From Heptranchias perlo (Eukaryota), in the NCBI RefSeq assembly GCF_035084215.1, contig NC_090325.1, positions 115,568,001 to 115,632,000 on the forward strand: DNA of 64,000 nt, read 5' to 3'. Positions 4,070 through 45,109 of this stretch are shown here, piece by piece. Position numbers and translations under genes: made by a program. Positions within the stretch are counted from its first letter, which is position 1; each line of letters starts with the position of its first letter. The notes below the pieces were generated by a model. That model was not told where the DNA came from, did not search any database, and saw only the letters and a list, made by a program, of their open reading frames with translations.

Positions 4070-4164
4070 TCACCTTCACCTGACGAAGGAGAAAGCCTCC
4101 GCAAGCTTGTGATTTTCAAATAAAACTGTTGGGACTATAACCTGGTGTTGTAAGATTCCTTACA
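4070..4164 (+). mobile_element. Penelope-like family 1, short 3'-end copy A (hammerhead motif 4076-4112, GAAA mutated to GCAA)
   Basis: TCACCTGACGAAGGAGAAAGCCTCCGCAAGCTTGTGA...AATAAA...CCTTACA; near-identical to the 3' end of GIY-YIG-coding copies at 36038 and 42812. Confidence 0.85.
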
Positions 4165-4443
4165 TCTTACATTAGAGCTAAAAGTGGGATCTGATCATGG
4201 AGAACAGAGCCCTGGCTCCCGAGCTGTGGACTTTGATCTTAGGATCCTGCTCTAAAAAGGGCACTGAGGACCATCTTGGAGGACTCGAGAAAGGTGGCAA
4301 GGAACACAGCAGAGTCCAATGCCATCTTTTACACAAGCAACACTACCTGGAGCAAGTGGAGGCATCACAAACAACTGCATCTGTCTCTCCCTGACAAAGA
4401 GGTGCCCAGACCAGTCATTGCATCCAACATGCATTCTTTTACT

Positions 4444-4538
4444 TCACCTTCACCTGACGAAGGAGAAAGCCTCCGCAAGCTTGTGATTTTCAAATAAAAC
4501 TGTTGGGACTATATCCTGGTGTTGTAAGATTCCTTACA
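4444..4538 (+). mobile_element. Penelope-like family 1, short copy B (hammerhead motif 4450-4486, GCAA mutant)
   Basis: Same sequence as copy A; flanked by 9-bp direct repeat TCTTTTACT (4435-4443, 4539-4547). Confidence 0.87.
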
Positions 4539-4907
4539 TCTTTTACTATTGGCCTTCAGGCTTTGGGGAATATGGTGGCAACCAGCTTCTCAGAGCTCTG
4601 GAGCGCAATCTCACAAGTTCTGCAGAATTTAACTAATAACATCAGGCCAGCCCTCCCACAGATCAGTGAGCATTCAGATCCTGGACCCAGCACAAGTTGC
4701 TTGGTCAGAGTCTGTCGTTAGGCCATCCAATCGTCCTGTGACAGATCATGTGACCTTTTCAGCCCGGTCCCTCAGACGCCTGGATACAGGTCCAAGGTGT
4801 CCGTACCTGAAGTGGTGTCATTGCCTGCCGAAGGGACTGAGACAAGAACCACCTCGCTCCAAGAGATATCATTGGAATTTCAGCCCCTCCCCCGCCCACT
4901 TTAAAGG

Positions 4908-5077
4908 GCCACGATGTGGAGATGCCGGTGATGGACTGGGGTGGACAAATGTAAGGAGTCGCACAACACCAGGTTATAGTCCAACAGCTTTATTTGAAAT
5001 CACAAGCTTTCGGAGCTTGGCTCCTTCGTCAGGTGAAGCTGTTGGGACTATAACCTGGTGTTGTGCGACTCCTTACA
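4908..5077 (-). mobile_element. Penelope-like family 1, copy C: tail + 3' end + inverted terminal arm
   Basis: Inverted arms 4950-4989 / 5037-5077; 42-bp tail 4908-4949; CTTTAAAG direct repeat at 4899-4906 and 5078-5085. Confidence 0.87.
5000..5036 (-). ncRNA. Minimal Type I hammerhead ribozyme motif, intact core
   Basis: Minus strand reads TCAC CTGACGA A GGAG CCAAG CTCC GAAA GC TT GTGA: stem I TCAC/GTGA, stem II GGAG/CTCC, palindromic AGCT in place of stem III. Confidence 0.78.
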
Positions 5078-5249
5078 CTTTAAAGCCGATAGCATGCCAC
5101 AGATTTAATTGGGGTCTGCAACTGGGAATCACTTTATGAAATTATAAAGTTTACTGCTAACAATTGCTCAACGCTGACAGCCCCTTTAATAAATAACGGC
5201 CTGATTCAAGTTGATAAGAGCTACAGAAAGTGTAACTTTCAAAACGTGC

Positions 5250-9860: not shown

Positions 9861-9862
9861 TT

Positions 9863-11630: not shown

Positions 11631-14600
11631 CATAGAATCATAGAATGGTTACAGCATGGAAGGAGGCCATTCGGCCAGTCGAGTCCGTGCTGGCTCTCTG
11701 CAAGAGCAATCCAGCTAGTCCCACTCTCCCACCCTATCCCCGTAGCCTTGCAAAATTTTTCCCCTTCAAGTACTTATCCAATTCCATTTTGAAAGTCACG
11801 ATTGAATCTGCCTCCACCACCCCCACGGGCAGAGCATTCCAATTCACAACCACACACTGTGTAAAAAGGTTTTTCCTCATGTCACCTTTGGTTCTTTTGC
11901 CAATCACATTAAATCTATGCCCTCTGATTCATGACCCCTCCGCCAATCACAACAGTTTCTCTCTGTCAACTCTGTCCAGACCCTTCATGATTTTGAATAC
12001 CTGTCAAATCTACTTGCAACCTTCTCTGCTCTAAGGAGAACAATCCCAGCTTCTCCAGTCTATGCACGTAACTGAAATCCCTCATCCCTGGAATCATTCC
12101 AGTAAATCTTTTCTGCACCCTCTCTAAGGCCTTCACATCCTTCCTAAAGTGCGGTGCCCTGGACTGGACACAATATTCCAGTTATGGCCGAACCAGTGTT
12201 TTATAAAGGTTCATCATAACTTCCTTACTTTTTTTTTATTCGTTCATGGGATGTGGACGTCGCTGGCAAGCCCAGCATTTATTGCCCATCCCTAATTGCC
12301 CTTGAGAAGGTGGTGGTGAGCCGCCTTCTTGAACCGCTGCAGTCCGTGTGGTGAAGGTTCTCCCACAGTGCTGTTAGGAAGGGAGTTCCAGGATTTTGAC
12401 TCAGTGACGATGAAGGAACGACGATATATTTCCAAGTCGGGATGGTGTGTAACTTGGAGGGAAACATGCAGATGCTGTTGTTCCCATGTACCTGCTGCCC
12501 TTGTCCTTCTAGGTGGTAGAGGTCGCGGGTTTGGGAGGTGCTGTCGAAGAAGCCTTGGCGAGTTGCTGCAGTGCATCCTGTGGATGGTACACACTGCAGC
12601 CACGGTGCGCCGGTGGTGAAGGGAGTGAATGTTTAGGGTGATGGATGGGGTGCCAATCAAGCAGGCTGCTTTGTCCTGGATGGTGTCGAGCTTCTTGAGT
12701 GTTGTTGGAGATGCACTCATCCAGGCAAGTGGAGAGTATTCCATCACATTCCTGACTTGTGCCTTGTAGATGGTAGGAAGGCTTTGGGGAGTCAGGAGGT
12801 GAGTTACTCGCTGCAGAATACCCAGCCACTGATCTGTTCTTGTAGCCACAGTATTTATGTGGCCGGTCCAGTTAAGTTTCTGGTCAATGGTGACCCCCAG
12901 GATGTTGATGGTGGGGGATTCGGTGATGTTAATGCCGTTGAATGTCAAGGGGAGGTGGTTAGACTCTCTCTTGTTGGAGATGCTCATTGTCTGGCACGAA
13001 TGTTCCTTGCCACTTATGAGCCCAAGCCTGGATGTTGTCCAGTTCTTGCTGCATGCGGGCAGGGACTGCTTCATTATCTGAGGCGTTGCGAATGGAACTG
13101 AACACTCTGCAATCATCAGCAAACATGCCCATTTCTGACCTTCTGATGGAGGGAAGGTCATTGATGAAGCAGCTGAAGATAGTTGGGCCTAGGACACTGC
13201 CCTGAGGAACTCCTGCAGCAATGTCCTGGGGCTGAGATGATTGGCCTCCATCGATCACTACCATCTTCCTTTGTGCTAGGTATGACTCCAGCCACTGGAG
13301 AGTTTTCCCCCTGATTCCCATTGACTTCAATTTTACTAGGGCTCCTTGGTGCCACACTCGGTCAAATGCTGCCTTGATGTCAAGGGCAGTCACTCTCACC
13401 TCACCTCTGGAATTCAGCTCTTTTGTCCATGTTTGGACCAAGGCTGTAATGAGCTCTGGAGCTGAGTGGTCCTGGCGGAACTCAAATTGAGCATCGGTGT
13501 GTAGGTTATTGGTGAGTAAGTGCCGCTTGATAGCACTGTCGACGACACCTTCCATCACTTTGCTGATGATTGAGAGTAGACTGATGGGATGGTAATTGGC
13601 CGGATTGGATTTGTCCCGCTTTTTGTGGACAGGACATACTGGGGCAATTTTCCACATTGTCAGGTAGATGCCAGTGTTGGAGCTGTACTGGAACAGTTTG
13701 GCTAGAGGTGCGGCTAGTTCTGGAGCACAAGTCTTCAGCACTACAGCCGGGATGTTGTCGGGGCCCATAGCCTTTGTTGTATCCAGTGCACTCAGCCGTT
13801 CCTTGATATCACGTGGAGTGAATCGAATTGGCTGAAGACTGGCTTCTGTGATGGTGGGAATATCGGGAGGAGGCCGAGATGGATCATCCACTCGGCACTT
13901 CTGGCTGAGGATGGTTGCAAACACTTCAGCCTTGTCTTTATCATTGAGGATGGGGATGTTCACAGAGCCTCCTCCTCCCGTTAGTTATTTAATTGTCCAC
14001 CACCATTCAGCCTGAATGTGGCAGGACTGCAGATCTTTGATCTGATCCATTGGTTGTGGAATTGCTTAGCTCTGTCTATAGCATGCTGTTTCCGCTGTTT
14101 AGCATGCATGTCGTCCTGCGTTGTAGCTTCACCAGGTTGGCACCTCATTTTTATGTACGCATGGTGCTGCTGCTGGCATGATCTTCTACGCTCCTCATTG
14201 AACCAGGGTTGATCCCCTGGCTTGTCGGTAATGGTAGAGTGAGGAATATGCCGGGCCATGAGGTTACAGATTGTGCTGGAATACAATTCTGCTTCTGCTG
14301 ATGGCCCACAGCACCTCATGGATGCCTAGTTTTGAGCTGCTAGATCTGTTCTGAATCTATCCCATTTAGCACGGTGGTAGTGCCACACAACATGTTGGTT
14401 GGTGTCCTTAGTGTAAAGACGAGACTTCGTCTCCACAAGAACTGTGCGGTGGTCACTCCTACCAATACTGTCATGGACAGATGCATCTGCGACAGGTAGA
14501 TTGGTGAGGATGAGGTCAAGTCGGTTTTTCCCTCGTGTTGGTTTTCTCACTACCTGCTGCAGGCCCAGTCTGGCAGCTATGTCCTTCAGGACTTGGCTAG

Positions 14601-22674: not shown

Positions 22675-22809
22675 ATGAAGCTCTTGGTGCTTGGGGCCAC
22701 AGGACAAACTGGCCAGTTTCTAGTGAGACAAGCCCTCGGCCAGGGCCATGTGGTGAAAGCTGTTGTGAGAACTCCCAGCAAGCTTACCATTCAGCATGAC
22801 AACCTGAAG
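22675..22809 (+). CDS. BLVRB-like flavin reductase / NAD(P)-binding atypical SDR, coding exon 1
   Basis: MKLLVLGATGQTGQFLVRQAL...HDNLK with Rossmann GATGxTG motif; acceptor TTTCAG ends 22666 (so an upstream non-coding exon exists); donor GTAATT at 22810. Confidence 0.92.
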
Positions 22810-26432: not shown

Positions 26433-26611
26433 AGGATTCATTTTAATCTAACCCACCCGGCAGGAAACTGACTGGATCGGATCGGCTGCTTGATTTATAC
26501 CCTGCCCGGTTTTACGTTCTATTGTTATCAGTGGAAACTAAAATTGGGCAGAGTATAAAACAGGTGGCGAATCCGATCTCATCATTTTCCGTTGGGTTAA
26601 AATTACCTCTC
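26433..26611. mobile_element. Palindromic MITE remnant
   Basis: TTTTAATCTAACC..GATCGGAT..TTTATACCCTGCCC / GGGCAGAGTATAAA..ATCCGATC..GGGTTAAAA inverted arms. Confidence 0.6.
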
Positions 26612-28272
26612 TTGGGGCAACAGGCTGAAGTGTTGGTGTATTGTCCTTTGGAGAAGGACTCTGAGGTGCCTGATTCTGCTATGTGAAAATGTCCTTCTTC
26701 TGAGACTCAAACCTTCATCAATGACTTTCACATTTTGTAGGAAATGTCAGTTAGATAGTTTTGTCACATTTACTGTGAAGGTTGATATGTTGCATGAGCA
26801 AGCCACAAGCAAAAGTGGGCTTAAAAATATAAAATTATATAATTTTGCTCTAGACCTAAGGATTTTGCTCCAGCATAATTATGCACACCACTTTCATCCA
26901 ACTAAAGTCCATCCGTAATTAGTTTAACTAAATGGTGCATAACGTTAACGAACTGGGAATTAGACTTTCTTCATGCATAATTGTGAGGAAAAGGGGGAAC
27001 ATGTCTCTTATCTGTTTAGGTAACAATCCAAGGTCCAACAAATTTGGCATGTATAAATTTACCTAAATCTCCGAGGACCAGAGAACTTAAGTCCAGTTTT
27101 ATTTGTTCTAGTGATCTGTTATTGGCTGGTCAACATTGCAAATCAAAACTGACTTAAATTTCCTAGTAGCAAGAATAAATGTACAACACTTCTGGAAGGA
27201 AATCGGTCAGCTTAAACTCACTTAAGGGTTTAATTTGTTCTTTATGCTATTGTTAATGCATTGGCTAACATATCTGCAATAGATTTTGATCTACAATATT
27301 TCAATTGATTTATTTTAAACTTAATGACCCTCAGACTATTTTAGAAAGGGATGCGCTCTCTTCATATTGCAACTAGTCTCTTAAAAATTAGTCTTTTGGC
27401 ACATATGGGGATTAAACAACACCACAGTACCACAGTGGTTAAGACTGGCTCTGACATTTTCTTGGTGGCCTGACTGTACATACATAATGCTGTGCTTTTG
27501 GATATACTTGACGGTGAAATCTCTAATGTTCATTTTCCATAATGTTCATTTAATACAATGACTTGGAATTTTTTTTAAACCTTTAAATGAAATGATCATC
27601 CTAGCTATACCACTCTATTTATTGCTGATGCTTTTGGCCACTATTTCCCTCAAACCTTTTTTTTGACACGGATTAGCAGACCATTACATTACTCTGAAAT
27701 GGAAGGACGTGCTAAATTTTCTTTTTAAGTACTTACACCTACAGGGGAGGGAACTCCTCAAATCATTATTCCTGCTACTAGGCTGCAAATCTATGTGCTG
27801 TTGGTCTGATGGAACATTAATCCAGGTCAAAGTGTGGGGGTGGAAGAGAAGCCATTTCTGGAGATGCTATGGCTACGACTGGATAATTAAGAGTAGAACC
27901 AAGTGAAGACGTAATAGAAAATAAGGCCTAAGGGAACATTAGCTATACAGATGAAAAAAAGTCCAGGAAAAAAATGACAAAAAACATGTAGAAAGAAATT
28001 ATAGTAATGAATTGAAAGGCTGAACAAGCTGGGGCTCTTTTCTATAGTAGGTGCTAATATTTACAGTTAATCAATGGAATTCTCTGTTGTCTTTATGTAG
28101 AAAAGTGAAAAATGTACCTTGCAAACTTGTAGTTTTATTAAATCTTCCTAATTCCTTATGATGATACATATTAATTGACTTGCTTTCTATTCCAATGATA
28201 CAATGCTTATGAGTGACTTAAGACCATACATGTTATAAACATTTCTCACTTATTCCTTTTAATTTTCTATAG

Positions 28273-28430
28273 ATAAAGAATTATTAACTCATGAAGGGTA
28301 CTTTGTTCCGGATACTGATGGAATTCCCATTACAAATTCAGTGACACGAGGAGATGTTGCTCGCTTTATGCTCTCACTCCTTAACGTTGATTTGTGGAAT
28401 AAGAAGGCTGTAGCCATGGTAACAAAGTGA
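28273..28430 (+). CDS. BLVRB-like, terminal coding exon
   Basis: Not in the ORF track. TTTTCTATAG acceptor, phase 1: (D)KELLTHEGYFVPDTDGIPITNSVTRGDVARFMLSLLNVDLWNKKAVAMVTK* containing the SVxRxDVA motif. The four exons sum to 663 nt (220 aa + stop). Confidence 0.9.
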
Positions 28431-30283: not shown

Positions 30284-32699
30284 ATAACACACATAATCTG
30301 GGAGATGGTGGAGAGCTTCCACAAAGAGCGGGTCATTCTAAGATTGCTTCTGCCGTAAAAATGCAGCACTACTTCAGCTAAAGACGCAATTACAAAAAAC
30401 AAATTCTGTTCATTTTTACAAATGTCTTCAGTGTTAGGACAAGTGATGAGTTGCAATGCAACAACTCATAACAAATTCCATGAACTATTACACTTACCAC
30501 ATGTAGTGTGATTTGCTGCCCCACTAGCACAATTTTGCATAAAAACCTCCTGAGACCGTGAAAATGAATGTTTGTGAGCAGGTTTAACTGATAACAAATT
30601 ACTTTCCCAACTCATTGTCAATGATGTGGATAATTTGGAGCATGTGTGTGTGGAGGGGGCCCATTTTAGAACAACCACCAACAGTAGATGTCTTTGGGAA
30701 GGAAAGGATTTTTTTTTGAGATGGCTGGCAAGTTTTAAAATGACTCAGTCATGAAAGGGGGAGACAACAGCGGTGTCAGTGAAGCTGTTGCAATAGAAAA
30801 TAAACTCTGAACAATTTACAGCTGCCACCCGATCTCCTTGGTTACAGCCTTGAAATCAATGATGTATTATTTTGTAATACATAATATGGAATTTAAAAAG
30901 GAATGTTTTATTCAGTTTTGTAACTGACAGTCAATGTCATGAAACGGGAAGGAAACAACCAGTGAGATTTGTATTAAGCATGAAGGCCAAGGACCAAATT
31001 TAGGAATGCAGGCTCCCACAGGGGAGCTTGGTCCACCAGGAGCGCATATCTGGAAATCGAAGGTATGCTGCCTAAACTTTTATGACCATTAAAATTAGTG
31101 GACAGAAAATTGTGGGATGCATTGTCACACAATGGATGAAAAATTTTGGGGAATGTGGAAACGATTTCCCCACATATATTTCCAACAGGCTACAGTCCAC
31201 ACCAGGAATGTGATTTTGTAGAATTCGCCCTTCTGACTGAAGGACTGATCATAGAATCATAGAAAATCTACGGCACAGAAGGAGGCCATTCGGCCCATCG
31301 TGTCCGTGCCAACCGAAAATGAGCCACCCAGCCTAATCCCACTTTTCAGCACTTGGTCCGTAGCCTTGTAGGTCACGGCACTTCAGGTGCACAATAGAAT
31401 CATGATTATGATATGTGAAATGCAAGTTTAATGAGTGATAATTAATACTTAATTAGATCATATGGAATAATATTGTTATTCACGTGGGGGAAATACTGAA
31501 CTTGCATAGTGTTACAATCATTTATATTAAAATAATTTATGGCATTTAGAACACCTATGAAACTTATACCAGCACTATAAGGGTTTAGATGAGTCATCTT
31601 GTCTAACAATTGTATTTTCTTTTAGCTGGTCAAGTAGAAACGTTAGAAGGATCCTTATCAACTGGGCCAAGAAAACTTGTCCAAAGTTTGAGAAACCCCA
31701 AAAGGACTTGGATTTATATTACTCATTAAATGGTTACTTAATTTAAATGGTTACTTAATTGGATTTTATGGCAGTCAGAAAGTAATCATGTTAATTAACC
31801 ATGTTAAAACCAGATAGGCTGTTTGATTTTGTTATTATGACATCAGGTAGGGGCAGGACCTAAATAACAAAAGTTGGAATTTGCAATGCAATTTTAATTA
31901 TTCACTTATACTAAACATTCTCCACTTGTGCTTTGTTGTTTAACAATGCACTCAGATGTGAAGAACTTTTTTCCGACAACAGTGCAGGCAATTTCCATCC
32001 TTCATCAACTATCTAATGGCTACAGAAGAAAACAGTGGAGATTTTAGCGGTGCCAGGTTTATTAGCTACAAAGATTTGTATGGATCGTAGCAGGCAGAAG
32101 ACACTTTGACCTTTCCCAAGGACATTTGAATTGTCGCATCAAAGGAACAGATGGATCGATTACTCACTGTCCCTGGAAAATGCCAGAACTTCACTTGAAC
32201 TCATTTGTTTAACATTTTGAAGTTGCATATTTTGTTGTACCACTTTTATTGTACTCATTGTAATATTTTGCTTTTGCTATTAAGCAACTGGAGATAGTTT
32301 ATTTATGTGTCGTATAATGCCTTCAAGTGAACTGGCAGTTAATGGGAAACTTTTACAAGCGTCGTTGTGTATTTTTAACAGCGATAGTTTTTCTCTTCTT
32401 TGAGCATTGAGAACCACAATGTTTACACAAGAACCATTCAGGTTGAAAGTTGCAATATCAGCACAAATAATTAACCACATAAATCTTACGCCAATATTTC
32501 CCACACCTTATGCAGTTTGTGTACAGTACATTAATTCCTTTTATACTCACTGCTTTCGAGTTCCTTCGGCATCTGTTGTAAGTCAGCAACAAGCTGGAGG
32601 ATTCAACAGTTATCAAATCAGCCTGAAGGTAATAGTGAAATATCTAGAAGATAAAGAGCAGTTAGCTGCAGCTTTTGCAAGAGAGAGAGCGAGCGCTGG

Positions 32700-34644
32700 C
32701 AGGGAGCGGGGAATGCGTGCCCTGTGCCGGCGGGCGGGGAATGCGTGCCCTGTGCGGGCGGGGAGCGGGGAATGCGTGCGCTGTGCGGGCGGGGAGCGGG
32801 GAATGCGTGCCCTGTGCAGGCGGGCGGGGAGCGGGGAATGCGTACCCTGTGTGGGCGGGGAGCGGGGAATGCGTGCGCTGTGCGGGGAACGGGGAATGCG
32901 TGCCCTGTGCGGGCGGGGAGCGGGGAATGCGAGCCATGTGCGGGCGGGGAGCGGGGAATGCGTGCCCTGTGCGGGCGGGGAGCGGGAATGCGAGCCCTGT
33001 GCGGGCGGGCGGGGACTGCGAGCCCTGGGCGGGCGGGCGGGGACTGCGAGCCCTGTGCGGGCGGGCGGGGAGCGGGGACTGCGAGCCCTGTGCGGGCGGG
33101 GAGCGGGGAATGCGAGCCCTGTGCAGGCGGGCGGGGACTGCGAGCCCTGGGCGGGCGGGCGGGGAGCGGGGACTGCGAGCCCTGTGCGGGCGGGGAGCGG
33201 GGAATGCGAGCCCTGTGCGGGCGGGGAGCGGGGAATGCGAGCCCTGTGCGGGCGGGCGGGGAGCGGGGAATGCGAGCCCTGTGCGGGCGGGGAGCGGGGA
33301 ATGCGAGCCCTGTGCGGGCGGGCGGGCGGGGAGCGGGGAATGCGAGTCCTGTGCGGGCGGGCGGGCGGGGAGCGCGGAATGCGAGCCCTGTGCGGGCGGG
33401 CGGGGAGCGGGGAATGCGAGCCCTGTGTGGGCGGGGAGCGGGGAATGCGAGCCCTGTGCGGGCGGGCGGGGAATGCGAGCCCTGTGCGGGCGGGGAGCGG
33501 GGAATGCGAGCCCTGGGCGGGCGGGGAGCGGGGAATGCGAGCCCTGTGCGGGCGGGCGGGGAGCGGGGAATGCGAGCCCTGTGCGGGCGGGCGGGGAGCG
33601 GGGAATGCGAGCCCTGTGCGGGCGGGCGGGGAGCGGGGAATGCGAGCCCTGTGCGGGCGGGCGGGGAGCGCGGAATGCAAGCCCTGTGCGGGCGGGGAGC
33701 GGGGAATGCGAGCCCTGGGCGGGCGGGCGGGGAGCGGGGAATGCGAGCCCAGTGCGGGCGGGCGAGGAGTGCGGGCGGGCGGGGAGCGGGGACTGCGAGC
33801 CCTGGGCGGGCGGGTGGGGAGCGGGGAATGCGAGTCCTGTGCGGGCGGGGAGCGCGGAATGTGAGCCCTGTGCGGGCGGGGAGCGGGGAATGCGAGCCCC
33901 GGGCGGGCGGGGAGCGGGGAATGCGAGCCCCGGGCGGGCGGGGAGCGGGGAATGCGAGCCCCGGGCGGGGAGCGGGGAATGCGAGCCCCGGGCGGGCGGG
34001 GAGCGGGGAATGCGAGCCCCAGGCGGGGAGCGGGGAATGCGAGCCCTGTGCGGGCGGGCGGGCGGGGAGCGGGGAATGCGAGCCCTGTGCGGGCGGGCGG
34101 GGAGCGGGGAATGCGAGTCCTGTGCGGGCGGGCCGGCGGGGAGCGCGGAATGCGAGCACTGTGCGGGCGGGCGGGGAGCGGGGAATGCGAGCCCTGTGTG
34201 GGCGGGGAGCGGGGAATGCGAGCCCTGTGCGGGCGGGCGGGGAATGCGAGCCCTGTGCGGGCGGGGAGCGGGGAATGCGAGCCCTGTGCGGGCGGGCGGG
34301 GAGCGGGGAATGCGAGCCCTGGGCGGGCGGGCGGGGAGCGGGGAATGCGAGCCCAGTGCGGGCGGGCGAGGAGTGCGGGCGGGCGGGCGGGGAGCGGGGA
34401 ATGCGAGCCCAGTGCGGGCGGGCGGGGAGCGGGGAATGCGAGCCCTGGGCGGGGAGCGGGGAATGCGAGCCCTGTGCGGGCGGGCGGGGAGCGGGGAATG
34501 CGAGCCCTGGGCGGGGAGCGGGGAATGCGAGCCCTGGGCGGGCGGGGGGCGGGGGGCGGGGAGCGGGGAATGCGAGCCCTGTGCGGGCGGGCGGGGAGCG
34601 GGGAATGCGAGCCCTGGGCGGGCGGGCGGGCGGGGAGCGGGGAA
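32700..34644 (+). repeat. G-rich minisatellite, unit about 27-39 bp: (GCGG)n GGAGCGGGGAATGCGAGCCCTGT
   Basis: Directly visible tandem array of about 1.95 kb; extreme G skew; CpG-rich; abuts the KLHL8 first exon. Confidence 0.98.
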
Positions 34645-34906: not shown

Positions 34907-36037
34907 GTAAGTCTGAGAATTTAAGGACTCTTTTTGGTTCCAGAGAAGTAGTTTTAAGTTCGGCTTTTTAAAAAAAATTCAACGAACAAACTCGAGCGTT
35001 GTATAATTTCTAACGAAATGCAACTTGACTAAATTGTAATTATTTTCGGCTTCAGGATTAGAGTTGGTTGATGTCTGCTAAATATTCATCTGAACAAAGA
35101 GTAAACTCGCAGGCTCTACACCTGAACTAGGGTCGGTTTTATTTTTGAACACATTTGTTTTGATATATTTTCAGTGCATGTGTTGTTTTTTGACGTGTTT
35201 TGTAAAGTGCCCACCTCCTCGGGGTTGGGGGGAAATGTTCCTTCTCCAATGACTTTTCCGACTGTTTGTATCAAGGCAGCATCGGACTTCAGTCATAGTC
35301 CTCGCTAATTAGGTAACGAACAGCGTGCGGAGCAATGTGGCGGGTCCATATGTTGTAAGGTTTTTTTTTCCCTCTATCAAATTGCCGAGCACACACACAC
35401 AACAAAGCTCATTGAACACGTTTGTTTCTACCGACGGTGTGATTCTTCCCACCAAGAAGAGTAACGAACAGGAAAGGCAAAATGATGCACTACTTTTTTG
35501 TAAGGTTATAAATCCCTCTACCTTCTCTTCGGTTCATCTGGCTTGTGCGGGTCACTAACCACTGGGAATCGAGAGGGCAGGCGACTGGTTTCAGGCCTTC
35601 CTCCAAACACTTCTTCAGAGAGCTGCTGATCTCTTAATGACTCTTGTCAACTTCCCGCCCGTATGGCCTCCGTACAGCACCTTGCCAAACATCAAGGGAC
35701 GTGGAGCACAGGCAGGTTGAGGATCAGCCATGATCTAATTGAATATTGGAACAGGCTCAAGGGGATGAATGGCCTACTCCTGTTCCTATGATGGGGGGGG
35801 GGGGGAGAGAATGTGGAACTCACCAACATAGGAGAATTAATCTTAGCTTATTTTTAAAGGGCACTGACTTAGTTACCACAGAGTGAGAATGGCCAGAAAA
35901 GATTGTGCTGGTAAAGGGATTTCTCCAGACAAAGCCTTAGTCTTATCACCTGCGACCAAAAGCTTTAATAGCGATTAGTGTTTTCTTTCCTGGTTTTGTA
36001 TTTAGTCTGGCCAAGGTACTTAGCCTATCCTGGGAGA

Positions 36038-36541
36038 TGTAAACAATCTTACAACACCAGGTTATAGTCCAACAATTTTATTTGAAAATCACAAGCTTTC
36101 AGAGGCTTCCTCCTTTGTCAGGTGAATGTGGAAATCCTTGAACGTTTCGCATTTATATTCAGAGAACAATACCTGGTGATTACAGATAATCTTTCCAACT
36201 GCCCGTTGTCAAGGCAATCAAAGTGTTCAGACAGAGAGGTGTTACCTACAGGACCACCGAATATACAAACGGCCAGAACACAAAACAGGGAGAGAGAGGG
36301 AGAAACATCCAAAAGGAAGAGAAAGACAGAAAATGACCCGTTGAATTAAAGACAGATAACTTTTATTCGCTGGTGGGGTTACGTGTAGCGTGACATGAAC
36401 CCAAGATCCCGGTTGAGGCCGTCCTCATGGGTGCGGGGAACTTGGCTATCAATTTCTGCTCGACGATTTTGCGTTGTCGTGTGTCTCGAAGGCTGCCTTG
36501 GAGTATGCTTACCCGGAGATCAGTGGCTGAATGTCCTTGAC
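36038..36541 (-). mobile_element. Penelope-like family 1, 5'-truncated copy D (decayed hammerhead motif 36089-36125)
   Basis: Minus strand encodes the GIY-YIG C-terminus (QGHSATDLRVSILQG...EQKLIAKF / THEDGLNRDLGFMSRYT*); 11-bp TSD ATCCTGGGAGA at 36027-36037 and 36542-36552. Confidence 0.9.
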
Positions 36542-38149
36542 ATCCTGGGAGAGGGGGAGTGAGTATTCCATGACAATTGCAGTGCAGCCTGTCATGCCTG
36601 TTCTTCAGCTTCTCAATTCAGCAAGCTTAATAGGGTGCACAGAATTCCCACGTGGCTTTTCCAAATGGTGAGTTTTGATGCAGCTATGTGGGATTGAGGT
36701 GGTTCCCGGAACACACACCCGGTAACACAAGCTTGGAACCAAATCAACCCTCTGTGATAGATTCAGTCATCACTGAAGTAGGCAGGTCTTGTCGTACTCA
36801 CTAATGGAACCTGGATGGATAGACCATCAGTGGGGGCTGGGATTCTTCTCACTGCTCCAGATAATTCTGCAAGTCAGTGCCTCAGTGCTCCGAGCTGAAT
36901 GAGCAGCTGGAAATTGCCCTGGTAAGCTTAATGGTTTTAGTGGATTAAACTTCAAAAGTAACTCTGCACACTTGAATCTGTGCCTAAGCTCTCTGGACTT
37001 GTTATGTGGGATGTGTCCCTTTGGGAAGACTGTGTACATTCCATATGAGGCAAACCCTACAGATAGATTGCTCAGTCGCTTGATTTGGAGATTCTTCAGA
37101 GTGGTGATGGGTTTCTGTCAGTGTCAGATACTGGGCTGACCAAGAATGCAGAACTAGATACCTTGGTCTGTTTGTTGTAGGAATGTCCTGGGTTACTTCT
37201 TTCTGGAGTTACAAAGATTCTTAAAGACTTGGCTTGAAGGCATGTTTCCCCATTCTTGTACTGCTTATTCTGGGGATCTGTGTCCTCTCCTGAAATTTGA
37301 CCATTGGTTTTGGTCACTTTGGCAGTTTTGTAATAAGTTAGTTTCTGTTGTGCTGGGGAAAAATAAACAGACAAGCACAGCTGCTGGTTTTTGCTTTAAC
37401 ATGTAGCTAATCTGAACACTTGTCTCAAGGTTAAAATAGATTTGGCAAAAACCCTTTTGACTTGTTTGGTTGTGTACCAGTCTCCACTCTGTCCTCTCCT
37501 CCTTGGTAACCTTCGTCGCTTTCCTGAGACAATCCAATTCTGAATCTTATACTCTGCTACTCCCATTCTTATCCCCTTCTCTTCCATCACCTGTTATTTG
37601 TTGCTATCTTTTTATGAGTGGTTCTGTTTGGTAACTGGTTTGTTTTTTCACTGTTTGTACTGATTTTTTCTTCTGAGCGATGCTTATAATTACTTATGTA
37701 CTGAGGTGTTCCTGCTTTTTTGTGGAAATGTAAAACTTTAAATAAAACAATTGCCAAAAACTTTTCAATAAAGCTGATGCCAATTTAATGGACTATTATA
37801 TCATTGTGATAGCACATCATTCATAGATTTTTTTTTTACTTTCTAAGCTGCACATCTATTCATTTCCTTATTTCTACCCCTGACTGACAGACTTTCATTT
37901 ATGTTTTCATGGTTTCTGCTAAATGTTGGTGTATTTTATGTGCTGTACTTCATCAGCATAACTAAAAGCACTTGTGGGCCTGTTTCAGTTGTACGAATAA
38001 CTAAGAATAGTGTATACAGGAGCATAGGGAACATAGTTTTAACATAGTATACAAGGAATTTAGGGATTTTGCAGAATGATAATCATGGAGATGGCTGTGA
38101 TAATGTCACTCAGGTATCTATGGAGTCTGAACCTGGCCCACAGTGTGCA

Positions 38150-38690
38150 ACAACTTACATTTATGTGATATCTTTAATGTAGAAAATGTCCCAAAGCATT
38201 TCACAGGGGTATAATCAAAAAATGGACCGCCAGCCAAAGAAGGAGATTTTAGGAGAGGTGACCAAAAGCTTGGTCAAAGAGATGGGTTTTAATTAGTGTC
38301 TTAAAGGAGGAGCAAGAGGGAATTCCAGAGCATAGGCATGGCAGCTGAGGGCATGGACGCCAATGATGGAGCGACGGGGTGGGGGTGATTCATAGGTCAG
38401 AGGAAGAAATAGTTCAGGGAAGAGGTTGTAGGGCTGGAGGGTCAAGGTATTAGGGATTTTAACACAATGAGAATTTTAAATTTGAGATATAGGGGCAACG
38501 AGGATGGGGGATGATGGGTGAGCGGGACTTGGTGCGGGTTAGGATACGGGCAGCAGAGTATTGGTTGAGCTGAAGTTTATGGAGGATCGAGAATGGGTGG
38601 CCGGCCAAGAGAGCATTAGAATAGTCGGTTTCAGCAGCAGATTGACTGAGGTGGGGCCTGTGGTGGACGATGTTACAAAGGTAGAAGTAG
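38150..38690 (-). mobile_element. L2-type LINE 3' fragment
   Basis: Similar to 331-900 (CAAAAGCTTGGTCAAAGAG, TCTTAAAGGAGGAG, ATGAGAATTTTAAATT). Confidence 0.7.
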
Positions 38691-39131
38691 GTGTTCCAGT
38701 ATCATTTAATATTAAACAGTGGAATTTGTCAACAATGAATTTTGGGGATGGATTTTCTTGTGAGTATCAATGTTAACTCCCTTCAGCTTGCCAAATTTTG
38801 CAATGAAAGTTGGACAGTTATATTTTAAAGTGGTCTTCTCCACTTGGTATTGGTTGAAGGTCTGTAGCAGGACAAGGCTCCAGCTGTGTGTTCACTGTGA
38901 TATTTGGGATTTAAAAAAAAAAGTTTTCCCTTTGGCACTTGGCCTGTTGCTCACCCTCAGCTTCCTGCCTACTGGCAACCTCTTTTCCTGATGTTAAAAT
39001 GGCACTATACTGCTGGAGGGATATTTAAAAAGGAGGGGAGGGACTTGCTGCAAACAATAATAAATGTTTGGTGTGAGAAAATTAACTCTTTACTGCCTCA
39101 AGTGCGTCCTTACAGTTTGCAATGACATAAT

Positions 39132-39374
39132 GGGGGTGATTTTAAACCTAAAGAACGGGTGGGTTGGGGGTGGGTGGGAGTTGAAAATAGTTTTATTTTT
39201 GGGTCACAACTGCAAAATTTTCGGTCTTTGCATTCCCAGTGGGAAGCCTGTGCTTTTACACGCCGACGTTATACCCAGAAATAAAGCCGGCTTGCGGTCG
39301 TGACCCAAAAAACAACTATTTTCAACTCGCACCCACCCCTAACCCACCCGTTCTTGGGGTTTAAAATCACCCTC
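39132..39374. mobile_element. MITE with about 80-bp TIRs and 3-bp AAT TSD (PIF/Harbinger-related superfamily)
   Basis: GGGGGTGATTTTAAACC...GGGTCACAACTGCAA / TTGCGGTCGTGACCC...GGTTTAAAATCACCCTC; AAT at 39129-39131 and 39375-39377. Confidence 0.85.
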
Positions 39375-41204
39375 AATATGTCTTTTAAAATAATGACCTC
39401 ACTTTTTTGGTTTCAGGAGCTGAGAGTCAGGAAGGTGCATTTTAAAAAAAAATTATAAAGCATGTTTCGCAAAGTAATTAGGGTCAGTAACCAGGAATCA
39501 AAAACTAGATTGTTGGCAGAACACACATTACCTGCCTTCATTTTCTGCCTTGACTGCAAGGTCATGCTCCATTTTGCATTGCAATCCCTATCAGCTCCTG
39601 ATCCATCTGCCTCAGTGTACACAGACACAGCAGCCTCTTTATTTTTCAACATGTTGGCTGTTTGATCCTTGCCTGTTTTGGCATTTGGTGCCAAAAAGTG
39701 ATGCATCACCAGCTACTCGAGGTGACATTTTCACGGTTTTATATAAAAGGGCTAACTGCTGTTCCCATGTTGTTGGAAAAATTAGACTAAGATATCACTG
39801 GCTACTTGTAGGGATTATTTTGTTCAGGGCTGCATAAATTGTGCACTCAGATTCCCAGTGCAAATAAAAATTTTCGTTGTCCTCATATTTTCTGGAGACA
39901 TCTCAGGAGCACCACCAGTTTCTAGTATATTCTGAAGCATTTTTCTTTCAGGTCGAGCTTGGATAGCCAATAGCTTTCAGTAGCTGTCTATAGTTTCTCT
40001 CATCCACAGTTCTCTCAATTTCCACTCCGGTTCATAAAACGATAAACATTTGCAGTCTGTTGTTACATCATAAGTTAAGCATTTCCTTAATAATGTCCAG
40101 GCCGGTGAATCGTTACTTTGTCTATCTCTCCTATCAAACTTTTATAGGGAGATACTTCATCTGTTACCATCACTTGGCATAGTGAGAAACCTCTAGTCTA
40201 GATACTGCAATTAATCAGCAAATTAGACTCGTACAGCTCTTTTTAAAAGGATACTGCTCTGGCACAGGCATGGCATTTTAACACTGTTAAATTAAGCTGC
40301 ACTCTGTGTACTTGTTTTCCTTTCTCCTGGTTCTTCCCTTAGGTCATTTAAAACAAAAAGGCAGCTGCACAGAACTTGGAAAGCATGTTCTCCCCAGTCC
40401 CCTTAAATCCCAGGAATTTTCAGTTCTGACGAAAATTCTTTTTCTTTTTACAGATAGTGACTAACCTGTGTATTTCCAGCATTTTCTGTTCCTGTTTTTG
40501 TTCCAGATTTCCAGCATTTGTGTTTTTTTACTTGAAGTGTAATACACCATTTAGTTATCTCCCAACACAAGCATGCCAATAAAATAATCATTCTCTTAAC
40601 AGACTTGCTAAAAGTCCTTTAACCTTATGCATGCACAAAATGTTTCTTAAAACTCTTGCTTGGGCAACCTTTTGTAAAACTCAACAGTCCATTTATAAAT
40701 TTCCATCTGGACCTTTGCTAGTGGAGAAATGCAGCCTATGGTTCTAAGTAATGTGAACTGTTTATGTGGCAAATAGAATCGGACCCAATGGTAAATGGAA
40801 GAATTTGGAATGATAGTAGTTCAGCAAAGGGGCCCCGGCGCTTCCAGGTTAATTTTCCTTTGTACAAGTGGGGATAGGGAATGAACTTAAAGTGTGTGGT
40901 AAACTTTAAAAAGGTGGAGTGTGGAAGTATTACATTCCTTTTTTACATCAGATGTAGACTTCATGTAGTCACTACGGTGTTAAGCACTGGGTGTAATTAT
41001 TTTCCACCATGGAAAACTTTGCAGTAAACCTTTGAGGTATAGCAGACCTTGCTTTTTGGAGTGGCTACTTCAGGTTCTTTTGCTCATTGAAGCCACTGCA
41101 ATCCTTTGCTACTGGTGTGACAAGGAATTGCCAAAAATTTGCAATAAATGACTTTCTAGGAGGAGTGAGATGTGGAAACCAATCACCGCTGGTACAATTG
41201 TCTG

Positions 41205-41965
41205 AACGCTGAAGCTGCTGGGAATCTAAAATAAAAACAAAGTTCTGGAAATACTCAGCTGATCAGGCAGCATCTATGGAGAGAGAAACAGATAACGTTT
41301 CAGGTCGATGACTTCATCAGAACTGGAAGAAGTAAAGATTTAACAGCTTTTGAGCAAGTTCAGAGCCTGGGAAAGGGTGGGAGGGTGGTGCGAAGGGGAG
41401 GAAAGGGTAGAAGGCAAGAGTGATTAAATGACAAAAGGGATGATGGTGCAAGGCAAAGTGGGTGGTAATGGACAAGTAAAGAAACAAAAGATGGATCTAG
41501 AGCTGTAAATGGCAACAGCAAAACCATTAACAGCACCTGCTGGCCGAAAAAATGGTTGCAGTGGTTATGACCTGAAGCTATTGAAATCAATGTTGAGTCT
41601 GGAAGGTTGTAAAGTGCCTAATCGAAAGATGAGGTGCTGTTCCTCAAGCCTCTGTCGCGCTTCATTGGAACAGTGTAAGAGGCTGAGGACAGAGGTCAGA
41701 GTGGGATGGAGAATTAAAATGGCAAGGGACAGGCAGGTCAGGATCACACTTGCAGACTGAACGGATGTGTTTGGTCTCCCCAATGTAGAGGAGATCGCAT
41801 CGTAAGCAGCGAATACAGTATGTTAAATTCAAAGAAGTACAAATAAATTGCTGTTTCACCTGGAAAGGAATGTTTGGGGCCTTGGATGGTGAGAAGGGAG
41901 GAGGTGAAAGGGCATGTGTTGAATCTTCTGCGCTCGCACAGGAAGGTGCTGTGGGAAGGAAACCG
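41205..41965 (-). mobile_element. Penelope-like family 2, decayed 3' part (GIY-YIG endonuclease + hammerhead remnant 41290-41324)
   Basis: Frameshifted ORFs give FICTSLNLTYCIRCLRCDLLYIGETK, CHFNSPSHS, RLEEQHLIFRLGTLQPSRLN, typical of PLE GIY-YIG domains. Confidence 0.88.
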
Positions 41966-42811
41966 AGTGTTAATTTGCCGTTGCTGTTTTATATGCAAAT
42001 TGTTCCCTTGATTGGTGTGTAATGAACAGGGTTGATATATATATGAACTTTAAAAGGCTTGATAAAGTACCATATAATAGACTTGTTAGCAAAATTAAAG
42101 CCCATGGGATTAAAGGGACAGTGGCAGCATGGATACAAAATTGCCTAGGGGACAGAAAGCAGAGAGTAGTGGTTGGTTGTTTTTCAGACTGGAGGGAAGG
42201 ATACAGTGGTGTTCCCCAGGGGTCAGTATTAGCACCATTGCTGTTTTTGATATATTAATGACCTGGACTTGAGTATAGAGGGTATAATTTCAAAGTTTCC
42301 AGATGAGACAAAATGCAGAAATGTAGTAAACAATGTGGAGGATAGTAACAGACTTCAGGAGGACATAGACAGACTGGTGAAATGGGCAGACACATGGCAG
42401 ATAAAATTTAATGCAGAGAAATGTGAAGTGATGCATTTTGATAGGAAGAATGAGGAGAGGCAATATAAACTAAATGGTACAATTTTAAAGGGGGTGCAGG
42501 AAAAGAGAGACCTGGGGGTGCACATACAAAAATATTTGAAGGTGGCAGGACAAGTTGAGAAGGCTATTAAAGAAGCATATAGGATCCTGGGCTTTGGTAA
42601 TAGAGGCGTAGAGTACAAAAGCAAGGAAGTTATGCTAAACCTTTATAAAACACTGGTTAGGCCTTAGCTGGAGTACTGTGTTCAATTCTGCGCACCACAC
42701 TTTAGGAAGGATGTCAAGGACTTAGCGAGGGTACAGAAGAGATTTACTAGAATGGTACCAGGGATGAGAGACTTCAGTTATATGGAGACGCTCGGGTTGT
42801 TCTCCTTAGTA

Positions 42812-43650
42812 TGTAAGGAATCTTACAACACCAGGTTATAGTCCAACTGTTTTATTTGAAAATCACAAGCTGTCGGAGGCTTTCTCCTTCGTCAGGTGAG
42901 TGTGGGATTCCATGGAAGGTTACCGCATTTATAGTCAGAGAACAATACCTGGTGATTACAGATAATCTTTCCAACTGCCCGTTGTCAAGGCAATCAAAGT
43001 GTTCAGACAGAGAGATGTTACCTACAGGACCACCGAATATTCAAACAGCCAGAACAAAAGACAGAGAGAGAGAGAAACATCCGAAAGGAAGAGAAAGGCA
43101 GAGAATGACCTGTTGTATTAAAAACAGATAACTTTTTTTCGCTGGTGGGGTTACGTGTAGTGTGACATGAACCCAAGATCCCGGTTGAGGCCGTCCTAAT
43201 GGGTGCGGAACTTGGCTATCAATTTCTGCTCGACGATTTTGCGTTGTGTGTCTCGAAGGCCGCCTTGGAGTACGCTTACCCGAAGATCGGTGGCTGAATA
43301 CCCTTGACTGCTGAAGTGTTCCCCAACTGGGAGGGAACCCTCCTGTCTGGCGATTGTTCAACCGGGATCTTGGGTTTGTATATTCGGTGGTCCTGTAGGT
43401 AACATCTCTCTGTCTGAACACTTTGATTGCCTTGACAACGGGCAGTTGGAAAGATTATCTGTAATCACCAGGTATTGTTCTCTGACTATAAATGCGGTAA
43501 CCTTCCATGGAATCCCACACTCACCTGACGAAGGAGAAAGCCTCCGAAAGCTTGTGATTTTCAAATAAAACAGTTGGACTATAACCTGGTATTGTAAGAT
43601 TCCTTACATTTGTCAACCCCAGTCCATCACTGGCATCTCCACATCATGGC
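42812..43650. mobile_element. Penelope-like family 1, inverted composite copy E, inserted in a CR1
   Basis: Left arm (-) 42812-43357 encodes TIARQEGSLPVGEHFSSQGYSATDLRVSVLQGGLRDT...GLNRDLGF; right arm (+) 43358-43608 plus 42-bp tail; TSD TCCTTAGTA at 42803-42811 and 43651-43659. Confidence 0.92.
43521..43557 (+). ncRNA. Minimal Type I hammerhead ribozyme motif, intact core
   Basis: TCAC CTGACGA A GGAG AAAGC CTCC GAAA GC TT GTGA. Confidence 0.78.
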
Positions 43651-45012
43651 TCCTTAGTATAGAGAAGGTTATGGGGAGATTTGATAGAGATGTTCAAGTT
43701 CATGAACAATTGTGATAGTGAATAAAGACAAACTGTTACCATTGGCAGAAGGATCAGTAACCAGAGGACACAGATTTAAGGTGATCGGCAAAAGAGCCAG
43801 AGGCGACATGAGGAAATTTTTTTTTTACGCAGCAAGTTGTAATGATCTGGAATGGGCTGCCTGAAAGGGTGGTGGAAGCAGATTCAGTAGTAACTTTCAA
43901 AAAGGAATTGGATAAATACTTGATGGGGAAAAAATTTACATGGCTACGGGAAAAGAGCAGGGGAATGGGACTAATTGGAAGTTCTTTCAAAGACCCGGTA
44001 CAGGCACGATGGGCTGAATGGCCTCTTCCTGTGCTGTACATACTATGATAGCCTACATTTTCCCCCCTTGAGCAGTAATGAGGTACCCAATCTGAAAAAT
44101 GGAAATTTGCAGACATTTGTGCAAAAACAGAATGAACAGGGGTGTAACTGTATTTGCCAGTACTACGTTCCTCTTCCCACCACCCCTGCCTGTTCTATTT
44201 GTTGTGGAATTTTTACCATGCCATTTAATGTGAGTCCTATTAGACAAATCCATGTAAACACTGTTTGCCTGCCACTTTTTCTACACAAGATCAATGTTGT
44301 AGTGACTTTATCAATTTAATTGATGTGACTCAGTAATTGTTTACAATAAATGTATATTGGTACACAAAAAGCTATTGAGTTTTGTACCCTGTGTTCTTCA
44401 ACAGTGTGTTTTCTTAATTGAATGTTATATGGTGCTCTGCTTTTGAATAGTTTAGATATAATTTATGCAAAATGCACAAGATAATCATACATTTTCAAAA
44501 AGCATAGCAGCAGTGCAAAATGTTTTGGGGCTACAGATTGGCTGCTTTTGATTTGTGTGATCAAAGTGCAACTACTTGGGTGAACACATGGGTTCAATCT
44601 TAAAGATCCTTGTTTAGAAGGAGGCCCATTGCACTTGTGCCAGTGCTTGGTCTCAAAGTGGAGCCATCAACTTTAATTCAACTTCCCTGTCCTTTCCCCA
44701 TATCCTTTTACATTTTATATTATTGAAGTTATAATTGTGAAGTAAGGCTCAAAACGTTTTTTTTTAACACTGGAACAGAGAAAGTTAAGGGGCAATCTAA
44801 AAGTTTTTCAAAATTATGTAAGACATTGTAAGGGTAAATACTGGAAAGTTGTTTCTGCTGGTTGGGAAACTGCAGCTAGCATTGAAGCCAACTCAGAGAC
44901 TCGCTAGATTGGGGAATCTTATTTCAAAATGAAATATTTTTGATATAGGTGCAGAAGGAAAGAGTGTATGTTAGTTCTTTATAGTTTTTTTAAAGCCTTG
45001 TTTCTCAAACTA

Positions 45013-45109
45013 TGTAAGGAATCTTACAACACCAGGTTATAGTCCAACTGTTTTATTTGAAAATCACAAGCTTTCGGAGGCTTTCTCCTTCGTCAGGTGA
45101 GCGAGTGTG
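45013..45109 (-). mobile_element. Penelope-like family 1, short copy F
   Basis: Starts TGTAAGGAATCTTACAACACCAGG like the other copies; no TSD recognised. Confidence 0.85.
45064..45100 (-). ncRNA. Minimal Type I hammerhead ribozyme motif, intact core
   Basis: Reverse complement is identical to the motif at 43521-43557. Confidence 0.78.

Follow-up and report, generated by a model that had tools for sequence, protein, structure and literature searches.

The data point to a minimal type I hammerhead ribozyme, likely carried in the pseudo-LTR (pLTR) of a young Penelope-like element that has a linker of Neptune/Nematis type. This hammerhead probably cuts slowly and is predicted to be aided by dimer formation or protein. 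In the 64-kb window, the whole stretch of DNA that was analysed, it is represented by seven truncated copies from five insertions, which are likely to be largely inert.

Hammerhead copies in the window

The motifs and their neighbouring features are as follows.

4023-4168: locally duplicated block containing motif 4076
4076..4112, +: hammerhead, broken (GCAA replaces GAAA); element end 4076-4165, 90 nt
4450..4486, +: hammerhead, broken (GCAA); element end 4450-4539
~4913-5078: insertion around motif 5000, with tail, short inverted arm and 10-bp target duplication
5000..5036, -: hammerhead, intact; as many as 5 bp in stem II
34907..45616, +: BTB-BACK-Kelch gene, predicted intron 1 (splice signals, CpG island, Pfam)
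36037-36541: 505-nt 5′-truncated copy around motif 36089; it has a GIY-YIG C-terminus and a target duplication of 11 bp
36089..36125, -: hammerhead, broken (G8 to A, CTGACAA; one stem II wobble)
41290..41324, -: second-family hammerhead, broken; different stems, palindrome ACGU
42811 to ~43366: long arm of the inverted-pair insertion, carrying motif 42863
42863..42899, -: hammerhead, broken (GACA), in that long arm
43151..43357, -: GIY-YIG endonuclease, last 68 codons, one in-frame stop
43487..43493, +: TATA-like box (TATAAAT), putative promoter element, 38 nt upstream of hammerhead C3
43521..43557, +: hammerhead, intact, in the shorter of the two inverted arms; stem I UCAC/GUGA, CUGACGA, extra A, stem II GGAG/CUCC, GAAA, palindrome AGCU
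after 43553, +: predicted cut of hammerhead 43521
43558..43650, +: element 3′ segment with AATAAA, conserved anchor, terminal hairpin, 3′ end and tail; main 3′ end at ~43609, then a 40-nt tail reaching the ATG of the ORF
45064..45100, -: hammerhead, intact; the copy is 98 nt long (45012 to ~45109)

An earlier note on this DNA had listed seven 37-nt motifs, and all seven are found with the coordinates and strands it gave: GCAA stands at 4076 and 4450, GACA at 42863 and CTGACAA at 36089, and sequence and descriptor agree that the cores at 5000, 43521 and 45064 are intact. Its count of seven copies holds for motifs, but these derive from only five insertions. The motifs at 4076 and 4450 represent a single 146-bp block duplicated locally (98% identity, common GCAA and non-element flank); the copy at 4450 is the likely original insertion, because a 9-bp direct repeat lies on its flanks. 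Those at 42863 and 43521 occupy the two arms of one insertion, with 236-nt arms at 99% identity and a common 11-bp target duplication. Stem II at 5000 can be extended to 5 bp, leaving a 3-nt loop. The 5′ end of the copy at 45064 lies ~30 nt past the TATA-like box of its subfamily. AATAAA is found downstream of every motif in the window, and the two long copies have a GIY-YIG C-terminal frame ~250 nt upstream of the motif, the arrangement already described for them. The frame at 43151..43357 is uninterrupted in full-length copies.

A broken eighth motif (41290-41324), which belongs to the second family, was absent from the earlier list; the frame upstream of it resembles another GIY-YIG C-terminus, as judged by eye.

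The predicted intron 34907..45616 lies in a gene that we take to be KLHL8-like, and contains the copies at 36089, 41290, 42863, 43521 and 45064. The proposed seeding of motifs into introns stands in part: four of the seven copies are intronic on the sequence-predicted gene model, but just one is both intact and sense.

The relaxed type I search that had been suggested was carried out with a structural descriptor (stem I of at least 4, CUGANGA, stem II of at least 4, GAAA, palindrome, UH). It picks out exactly these 3 intact copies within the window and none in 10 shuffles. Genome-wide, the exact motif pattern has 22,895 matches against 0 for the reversed control, and intact motifs total 72,821 over 3.25 Gb, or ~1.4 per 64 kb as compared to 3 in the window; the motif density here is ordinary for the genome. 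Membership of a canonical Rfam hammerhead family was rejected, as the curated models gave no match: there was no hammerhead among the 9 Rfam matches at E≤10.

The element and the constraint on its hammerhead

In full-length copies the motif lies at each end of an intact 891-902-aa RT and GIY-YIG frame, which bears out the earlier view of a minimal type I hammerhead in a Penelope-like pLTR. Of 20 fetched long-frame loci, 9 have the exact motif on both sides of the intact frame and 3 more have variants of it. The order of the element is: ORF stop; ~250 nt; TATA-like box; 37-46 nt; hammerhead; AATAAA; main 3′ end; 40-nt tail; ATG; and frame, the repeat recurring 3.04-3.06 kb on (tandem period 3,041-3,063 nt). 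The 40-nt tail begins in 51 of 100 copies. Recent activity and a chondrichthyan family, both claimed in the earlier note, agree with the data: intact frames are 0.1-0.9% apart (3-25 of 2,670 nt), and the nearest named proteins come from sharks. The element is likely a young, very abundant Penelope-like element of a shark.

Motifs in the protein include DKG, YIDD, a C-X4-C-X2-C linker, VY..YIG, conserved C/C/H/H, R, E and N. RVT_1, above cut-off, is the sole domain found with Pfam, and the endonuclease is recognised from its motifs. The linker reads CHGNLCKTC at residue 753 and is kept in a turtle relative. As in endonuclease-bearing Penelope-like elements, a single frame holds RT, DKG and, at its C-terminus, GIY-YIG with CCHH, and there are partial tandems, inverted truncated copies and a tail. 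The CX2-5CxxC linker motif, the one feature used for this assignment, suggests the Neptune/Nematis type and not Penelope/Poseidon.

Selection between subfamilies obeys hammerhead rules. Among 14 haplotypes, each present in at least 2 of 93 independent events, none of the 11 core columns is variable; variation is found at N7, at 4 of 5 loop positions, and at 5 of 8 and 3 of 8 columns of stems I and II. All 112 stem cells in these haplotypes pair, including changes from U-A to C-G and from A-U to G-C. The core is intact in 138 of 152 sampled motifs, which lack helix III and have the unpaired A between 9 and 10.1 (151), G10.1 (150), C11.1 (146) and GC at palindromic 15.2-16.2 (150). Across 55 distinct motifs, 97% of stem cells pair, and covariation is 0.240 versus 0.194 shuffled (0/500), measures that are inflated by relatedness; one of the five groups of measures, pairs with two-sided changes (3), is not above shuffles (217/500). 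The second family has the same core and extra A with different stems and the palindrome ACGU, in which CG was built into the search pattern. Core and stems, whose conservation the earlier note proposed to check, are constrained between subfamilies, but the tail and anchor downstream are conserved about equally, so conservation of the motif alone is not specific.

The hammerhead is predicted to cut itself only slowly. Isolated motifs are predicted to form stems I and II, with weak z-scores for the intact copies (-1.6 to -1.9); in a 145-nt context, the stem probabilities of motif 43521 are only 0.16-0.21. In the predicted two-strand fold, the palindromes are paired and the stems swapped. Pairing of the 6-nt AAGCUU (-4.3 kcal/mol) can be more stable than that of the 4-nt active form (-2.5 kcal/mol).

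The template of the short copies

In 100 consecutive copies, with both arms of pairs and local repeats each counted separately, 36 of the 82 copies at risk have their 5′ end 0-20 nt upstream of C3 (0.021 per nt), versus a background of 0.002-0.003 per nt both within the motif and 41-75 nt upstream. Fifteen of 42 end 28-32 nt after the TATA T, and 0 end at the cut site. Genome-wide, 1,131 ends fall at an initiator-like A versus 42 five nt upstream, a control that leaves out junctions preceded by G; the start-site loci that were fetched have true junctions in 40 of 40. At the cut site there are 110 ends, as compared to 101 and 153 two nt either side. The ends pile up upstream of the hammerhead and not at the cut site, so uncut RNA is the likely template for short copies, many of which were probably made from it.

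We lean towards a reading in which the tens of thousands of young copies serve as a fossil 5′-end map of the template for retrotransposition: a TATA-initiator start precedes the hammerhead, uncut self-primed RNA gives at least a third of insertions, and linear products are seldom copied. Transcription would start ~30 nt past the TATA-like box, 7-17 nt upstream of the hammerhead, and one transcript would therefore hold two hammerheads, which could pair via their AGCU palindromes and form helix III. Reverse transcription would begin internally at two 3′ ends that lie 60-100 nt behind the cut site. According to the accessible text of Frangieh 2024 (PMC11167929), an internal start was shown in vitro for the anole element; RT started internally at two places, the substrate was mainly uncut RNA, and cleavage was assisted by protein. 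In the shark element, reverse transcription would often run off the uncut 5′ end, giving 90-140-nt copies, many of which would fold back into head-to-head pairs. Longer copies would need a template that extends upstream of the start, either read-through or a ligated circle, and cleavage may act there. If this is true, selection would keep the ribozyme for a different step, for example to produce the long-copy template. It would also give genome-scale support to a mechanism so far described in vitro for a single lizard element, and the youth of this family makes it suitable for tests.

The pile-up could instead reflect fold-back priming at short self-complementary words and not a transcription start, which we consider doubtful. 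In a second subfamily, the one with AAACATTT, 21 of 30 junctions fold back at that mini-hairpin, with the control nearly as high, and many first-subfamily junctions use 2-3 nt of microhomology. Second-subfamily counts are 1,626 at the start site versus 1,218 at the control, where inverted junctions make up 25 of 30 loci and for the most part represent the opposite arm of these same fold-backs; among non-inverted copies, 9/30 are at the start site versus 5/30 at the control. The mini-hairpin of the second subfamily could favour fold-back without a start site. However, the first 72 start-site junctions listed include at least 15 that are non-inverted, and several of them have target duplications of 10-15 bp; these alone extrapolate above the 42 of the control, which has the same ATTTC word. 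Further, the ends move with the TATA-like box as its spacing changes (37-46 nt), and the palindrome AAGCTT within the motif attracts only 2 of 100 ends.

An unlikely alternative is efficient, obligatory cleavage as proposed by Cervera: after cutting by both hammerheads, the unit RNA would be ligated to a circle, which would normally serve as template. Consistent with this, intact elements have two in-register motifs 3.04-3.06 kb apart, the core is strictly conserved, and 37 of 100 copies extend at least 76 nt upstream of C3, needing a junction-spanning template. A ligated circle would also leave no ends at the cut site. Yet 36 of 100 copies have an intact motif and end 0-20 nt upstream of it, which a circle would not predict, and the 1,131 versus 42 ends at the predicted start argue against it; long copies would also come from read-through past AATAAA. 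In the anole element, catalytic mutants left insertion in vitro unimpaired (Frangieh 2024, PMC11167929, accessible text).

Less probable still is a motif that persists for its role as a DNA or RNA signal, either a downstream promoter element or a protein-binding fold, with no cleavage in vivo. Its place 7-17 nt behind the putative start is usual for downstream promoter elements, and genomic ends have no excess at the cut site. The accessible texts add Anolis RNA-seq without ends at the site (Frangieh 2024, PMC11167929) and weak activity of minimal hammerheads (min-HHRs) in vitro (Cervera 2014, PMC4209133). Against this, variation avoids exactly the catalytic bases, frees N7 and loop II, and includes wobble and compensatory stem changes; the second family has a common core yet wholly different stems. 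Such variation is unlike that of a DNA signal, but a binding fold might show it.

Finally, it is highly improbable that copy 43521, despite its intact core, sense strand and position in predicted intron 1, is a domesticated ribozyme acting on the host Kelch pre-mRNA: its 99% inverted partner, 327 nt away, is predicted to occupy all its bases (hammerhead pair probabilities 0.0), locking it up on the sense strand by pairing with 42863-42899; it is one among 72,821 like motifs, with an ordinary target duplication; and the window contains no intact same-strand partner.

Comparison with known systems

The comparisons here draw on the accessible portions of each source. Like Neptune/Nematis (Craig 2021, PMC8557442), the element has a single frame, DKG, a C-terminal GIY-YIG with CCHH, a CX2-5CxxC linker, partial tandems, an inverted truncated copy, a 30-40-bp tail and a pLTR hammerhead; unlike them, it has no apparent microsatellite-target bias at the printed loci, by eye. 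The C-X4-C-X2-C linker is present here, whereas Penelope/Poseidon are described without it. With PAc, the Anolis carolinensis Poseidon (Frangieh 2024, PMC11167929), it shares pLTR-ORF-pLTR tandems, two 3′ ends bounding the tail, a terminal stem-loop, ATT-like microhomology at 3′ junctions and a cut site without an end signal. The motif here lies wholly in the 5′ UTR, ~95 nt upstream of the ATG, whereas in PAc the frame begins within stem II.

A reduced palindromic stem III and a Penelope-like link are also features of the small dimer-cleaving variants of Lunse, Weinberg and Breaker (via PMC6765202). Non-LTR retrozymes, which are reported from one chondrichthyan genome as well, likewise have pLTR-derived type I hammerheads (Li, Clavereau and Pollet, bioRxiv 10.64898/2026.07.22.740005, as excerpted). 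They are non-coding head-to-tail arrays, whereas those in the window are ends of an autonomous element, either dispersed or head-to-head. Identity with a retrozyme was rejected: in place of head-to-tail repeats there are dispersed and inverted copies and a single local duplicate whose cores are broken.

The role of the hammerhead in Penelope-like elements is called open in the accessible text of Craig 2021 and Frangieh 2024. The present family is useful for this question: its intact frames are <1% apart, it has natural wobble and compensatory variants, and it offers more than 100,000 3′ ends with countable 5′ junctions, whose counts favour uncut RNA as the short-copy template. The literature search found no shark report and no report of this 5′-end pattern, Repbase and Dfam being outside its scope.

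The closest match to the motif is the min-HHRs of Cervera 2014 (PMC4209133), which occur in fish Xena, Poseidon and Neptune elements. Both are type I with a helix I of 4-5 bp and no helix III, and share a base between 9 and 10.1, G10.1-C11.1 and palindromic 15.2-16.2. Both have one motif per pLTR ~3 kb apart, opposite-strand pairs and mostly dispersed truncated copies. Helix II is 4-5 bp here versus 7-8 bp in the Schistosoma families, and the 72,821 intact motifs compare with ~4,000 in coelacanth and ~9,000 in Xenopus, counted by another method; the accessible text names no shark. The extra A, which the earlier note thought possibly undescribed, is already listed there as conserved in metazoan min-HHRs. 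Class, extra A and palindrome have thus been in print since 2014, and the class is therefore known, with this family new within it.

Hammerhead motifs and host genes of the window

The seven 37-nt hammerhead motifs of the earlier note, named here by their start coordinates, match the sequence in both claimed positions and claimed core departures. A structural descriptor recovers the three intact window copies and finds no match in 10 shuffles; an Rfam scan of the window returned no hammerhead model among 9 matches at E<=10. The seven motifs represent five insertions: 4076 and 4450 lie within a 146-bp block duplicated at 98%, including the flank and the GCAA, and 42863 and 43521 are the two arms of one head-to-head insertion (arms of 236 nt, 99% alike; target duplication of 11 bp). 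Target duplications of 10 bp and 11 bp are found at copies 5000 and 36089, respectively. An unusual motif density was ruled out, with three intact copies per 64 kb versus ~1.4 expected from the genome count.

Two host genes and one further motif are placed as follows.

22650-28420 (+): NAD(P)H-binding protein gene, four coding exons, Pfam NAD_binding_10
34700-62420 (+): BTB-BACK-Kelch gene, Pfam domains from 45.6 kb on
41290-41324 (-): broken eighth motif, of a second family, with two stem II bases lost

The Pfam scan covered 149 of 280 window frames; we take the first gene to be flavin-reductase-like and the second to be KLHL8-like. Splice signals at 34906 (donor) and 45616 (acceptor), together with a CpG island, predict an intron that would contain four of the seven copies. 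The proposal that such motifs are seeded into introns would fit these four on the predicted gene model, but just 43521 among them is intact and sense. In the predicted fold, its inverted partner pairs with every base of the 43521 hammerhead. Copies 4076, 4450 and 5000 are ~18 kb ahead of the first coding exon seen.

Other features accompany these. In the predicted exon 1 of the Kelch gene, a good-context ATG begins a short reading frame ahead of the main start codon at 45640, and just upstream of this exon, within the CpG island, lies a ~2 kb G+C-rich minisatellite (32690-34640; units of 24-39 nt). LINE fragments with reverse transcriptase (RT) and endonuclease remnants are abundant (e.g. 12295-13984, 53021-54296 and 58004-59439), and the insertion at 42811-43650 splits one of them. 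Two near-perfect hairpins (25296-25368 and 63699-63778), with weak microRNA matches far under Rfam thresholds, are probably small inverted repeats.

The second-family copy spans 41290-41620 (-) and has related loci elsewhere (L190-L200). Its hammerhead has stem I AGUU/AACU, stem II AGGUC/GACCU and palindrome ACGU; despite these different stems, the core and extra A are common to both families. A genome search with the loop fixed at 4 nt found 11 copies, which is no measure of family size.

The element family and the hammerhead fold

Across the 3.25-Gb genome, the exact pattern of the earlier note has 22,895 matches, the pattern widened to subfamily variants 72,821, and the 20-nt anchor behind the motif 105,826; reversed control patterns have none. 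Full-length copies were reached with the RT fragment of one locus, L004, as query. Nine of the 20 long-frame loci fetched contain an intact frame with the exact motif on both sides and three further loci have variant motifs; the tandem period of full-length copies is 3,041-3,063 nt. At L004 itself (1796-3033), the RT part is inverted relative to the endonuclease part within one insertion. In two other loci, L065 and L066 (contig C42, 10.567-10.585 Mb), the element frame continues in register into a long minisatellite that encodes peptide repeats, and the open frames there run to 1,669 and 2,677 codons.

The endonuclease was assigned from sequence motifs, the Pfam set being used without families specific to Penelope-like elements. 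Searching PDB by sequence with the complete frame as query gave no match at E<=0.1. The linker indicates the Neptune/Nematis type and not Penelope/Poseidon, an assignment judged by linker and not by tree under the definitions in the accessible text of Craig 2021 (PMC8557442).

Sharks supply the closest named proteins (Heptranchias, 95-97%; Scyliorhinus and Mustelus, 81-86%), with turtle proteins next at ~45%, which supports a chondrichthyan family. Recent activity is likewise supported: 11 intact frames of the youngest subfamily are only 3-25 differences apart per 2,670 nt, and two frame copies at one locus have none. Judged from sequence, the family is young; its frame, with 58 synonymous versus 42 replacement codon differences between subfamilies, is judged to be under purifying selection.

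The repeat consists, in order, of: the ORF stop; ~250 nt; a TATA-like box; 37-46 nt; the hammerhead; AATAAA; a hairpin; a tail; and the ATG. With this order the hammerhead belongs both to the 3' UTR of a unit and to the 5' UTR of the unit that follows, ~95 nt upstream of the start codon. The hairpin terminates at the main 3' end, which closes its 6 bp (window 43591-43609; 100-copy sample), and a 40-nt tail then leads to the ATG. A compensatory change separates subfamilies, with UGUAAA/UUUACA in 60 of 100 copies and UGUAAG/CUUACA in 20. By analogy, this hairpin may be the counterpart of the stem-loop where RT starts in an anole element.

Selection on the fold was assessed in the first 100 anchor matches on contig C1, picked blind to the motif, together with RT-selected loci. 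This sample holds 152 complete motifs from 93 events, and two more copies off the fixed layout (one with a 6-nt loop, one truncated). Fourteen of 55 haplotypes were seen again in independent events. Among these 14, none of 11 core columns varies, and the extra A, the palindrome and H17 are also invariant; variation falls at N7, in 4/5 loop columns, 5/8 columns of stem I and 3/8 of stem II. All 112 stem cells nonetheless pair, via wobbles and two compensatory changes, whereas just half of random transitions keep a pair; a natural variant has the stems CCGC/GUGG and GGGG/CCCC. Recurrent CpG decay probably accounts for one of the wobbles. Departures from the core are all private (18 among 14 copies, 7 of CpG type).

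Over all 55 motifs, 97% of stem cells pair and the covariation score, a measure inflated by kinship, exceeds 500 of 500 shuffles. However, the two-sided pair count does not exceed shuffles, and conservation of the tail is about equal to that of the motif. Fold z-scores are weak, and in context folding the hammerhead stems reach a probability of only 0.16-0.21.

Positions of 5' ends

The 5' ends of copies crowd just upstream of the intact motif, not at the cut site. In the 100-copy sample, 10 ends lie behind the cut site, none at it and eight within the motif; upstream of C3, 36 lie at 0-20 nt, six at 21-40 and three at 41-75, and 37 copies extend farther than 75 nt. Among the near ends, 15 of 42 fall 28-32 nt past the T that opens the TATA-like box, in subfamilies of differing spacing, and window copy 45064 starts ~30 nt past the box of its subfamily. 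In one subfamily the end peak is the A of TCATTTC, an initiator-like word.

Junctions were counted genome-wide as an exact stretch preceded by two mismatching bases, giving 1,131 at this A versus 42 five nt upstream. Forty were fetched, chosen from the first 72 listed with the AA-preceded class omitted; all 40 are true junctions, which rules out a subfamily with different upstream sequence. Fifteen are non-inverted, and several of these carry 10-15-bp duplications.

In a second subfamily the corresponding counts are closer (1,626 versus 1,218), the control being made up largely of opposite arms from the same mini-hairpin fold-backs. These counts would fit either a start site or an explanation that we consider unlikely overall, in which the pile-up stems from fold-back priming at self-complementary words, not from transcription start. 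Non-inverted copies of this subfamily number 9/30 at the start site and 5/30 at the control. Copying of cleaved 3' products is ruled out: junctions at the cut site number 110, and the positions 2 nt to each side of it have 101 and 153, the 153 being inflated by a subfamily variant.

A G precedes the junction in 46 of the first 100 listed (by eye), the majority from the inverted arm. Seven fold-back junctions at the predicted start (L155-L157, L160, L166, L170 and L173) have an added G or CG unexplained by either arm, possibly the trace of a copied cap.

Most likely, the repeat acts as both promoter and terminator. The transcript would begin just before the first hammerhead and contain a second 3 kb on, and both could build helix III via AGCU. 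By analogy with the accessible text of Cervera 2014 (PMC4209133) and Frangieh 2024 (PMC11167929), cleavage would be slow, or occur only with protein bound. The end counts suggest that the protein primes within the RNA at two 3' ends and that reverse transcription frequently continues off the 5' terminus of uncut RNA; the short copies left by this may then form inverted pairs by folding back. Long copies would require read-through or a ligated circle, and cleavage may serve in making them.

Comparison with known hammerhead elements

This kind of hammerhead is already published. As far as its accessible text goes, Cervera 2014 (PMC4209133) covers fish Neptune and Poseidon elements and lists among hammerhead features a base between 9 and 10.1, which rules out the extra A as a new variant, as well as G10.1-C11.1, the palindrome and opposite-strand pairs; the accessible part of its supplement table names no shark. 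The 2026 preprint of Li, Clavereau and Pollet (bioRxiv 10.64898/2026.07.22.740005) describes, in its accessible part, hammerhead arrays in one chondrichthyan. A literature search that did not extend to Repbase, Dfam or Lunse 2017 returned no report from a shark, and the 5'-end pattern is without an earlier report in the literature searched. In the accessible text of Arkhipova 2013, a rotifer pLTR has TATA- and initiator-like words. The promoter of Drosophila Penelope is TATA-less according to the accessible text of Schostak 2008.
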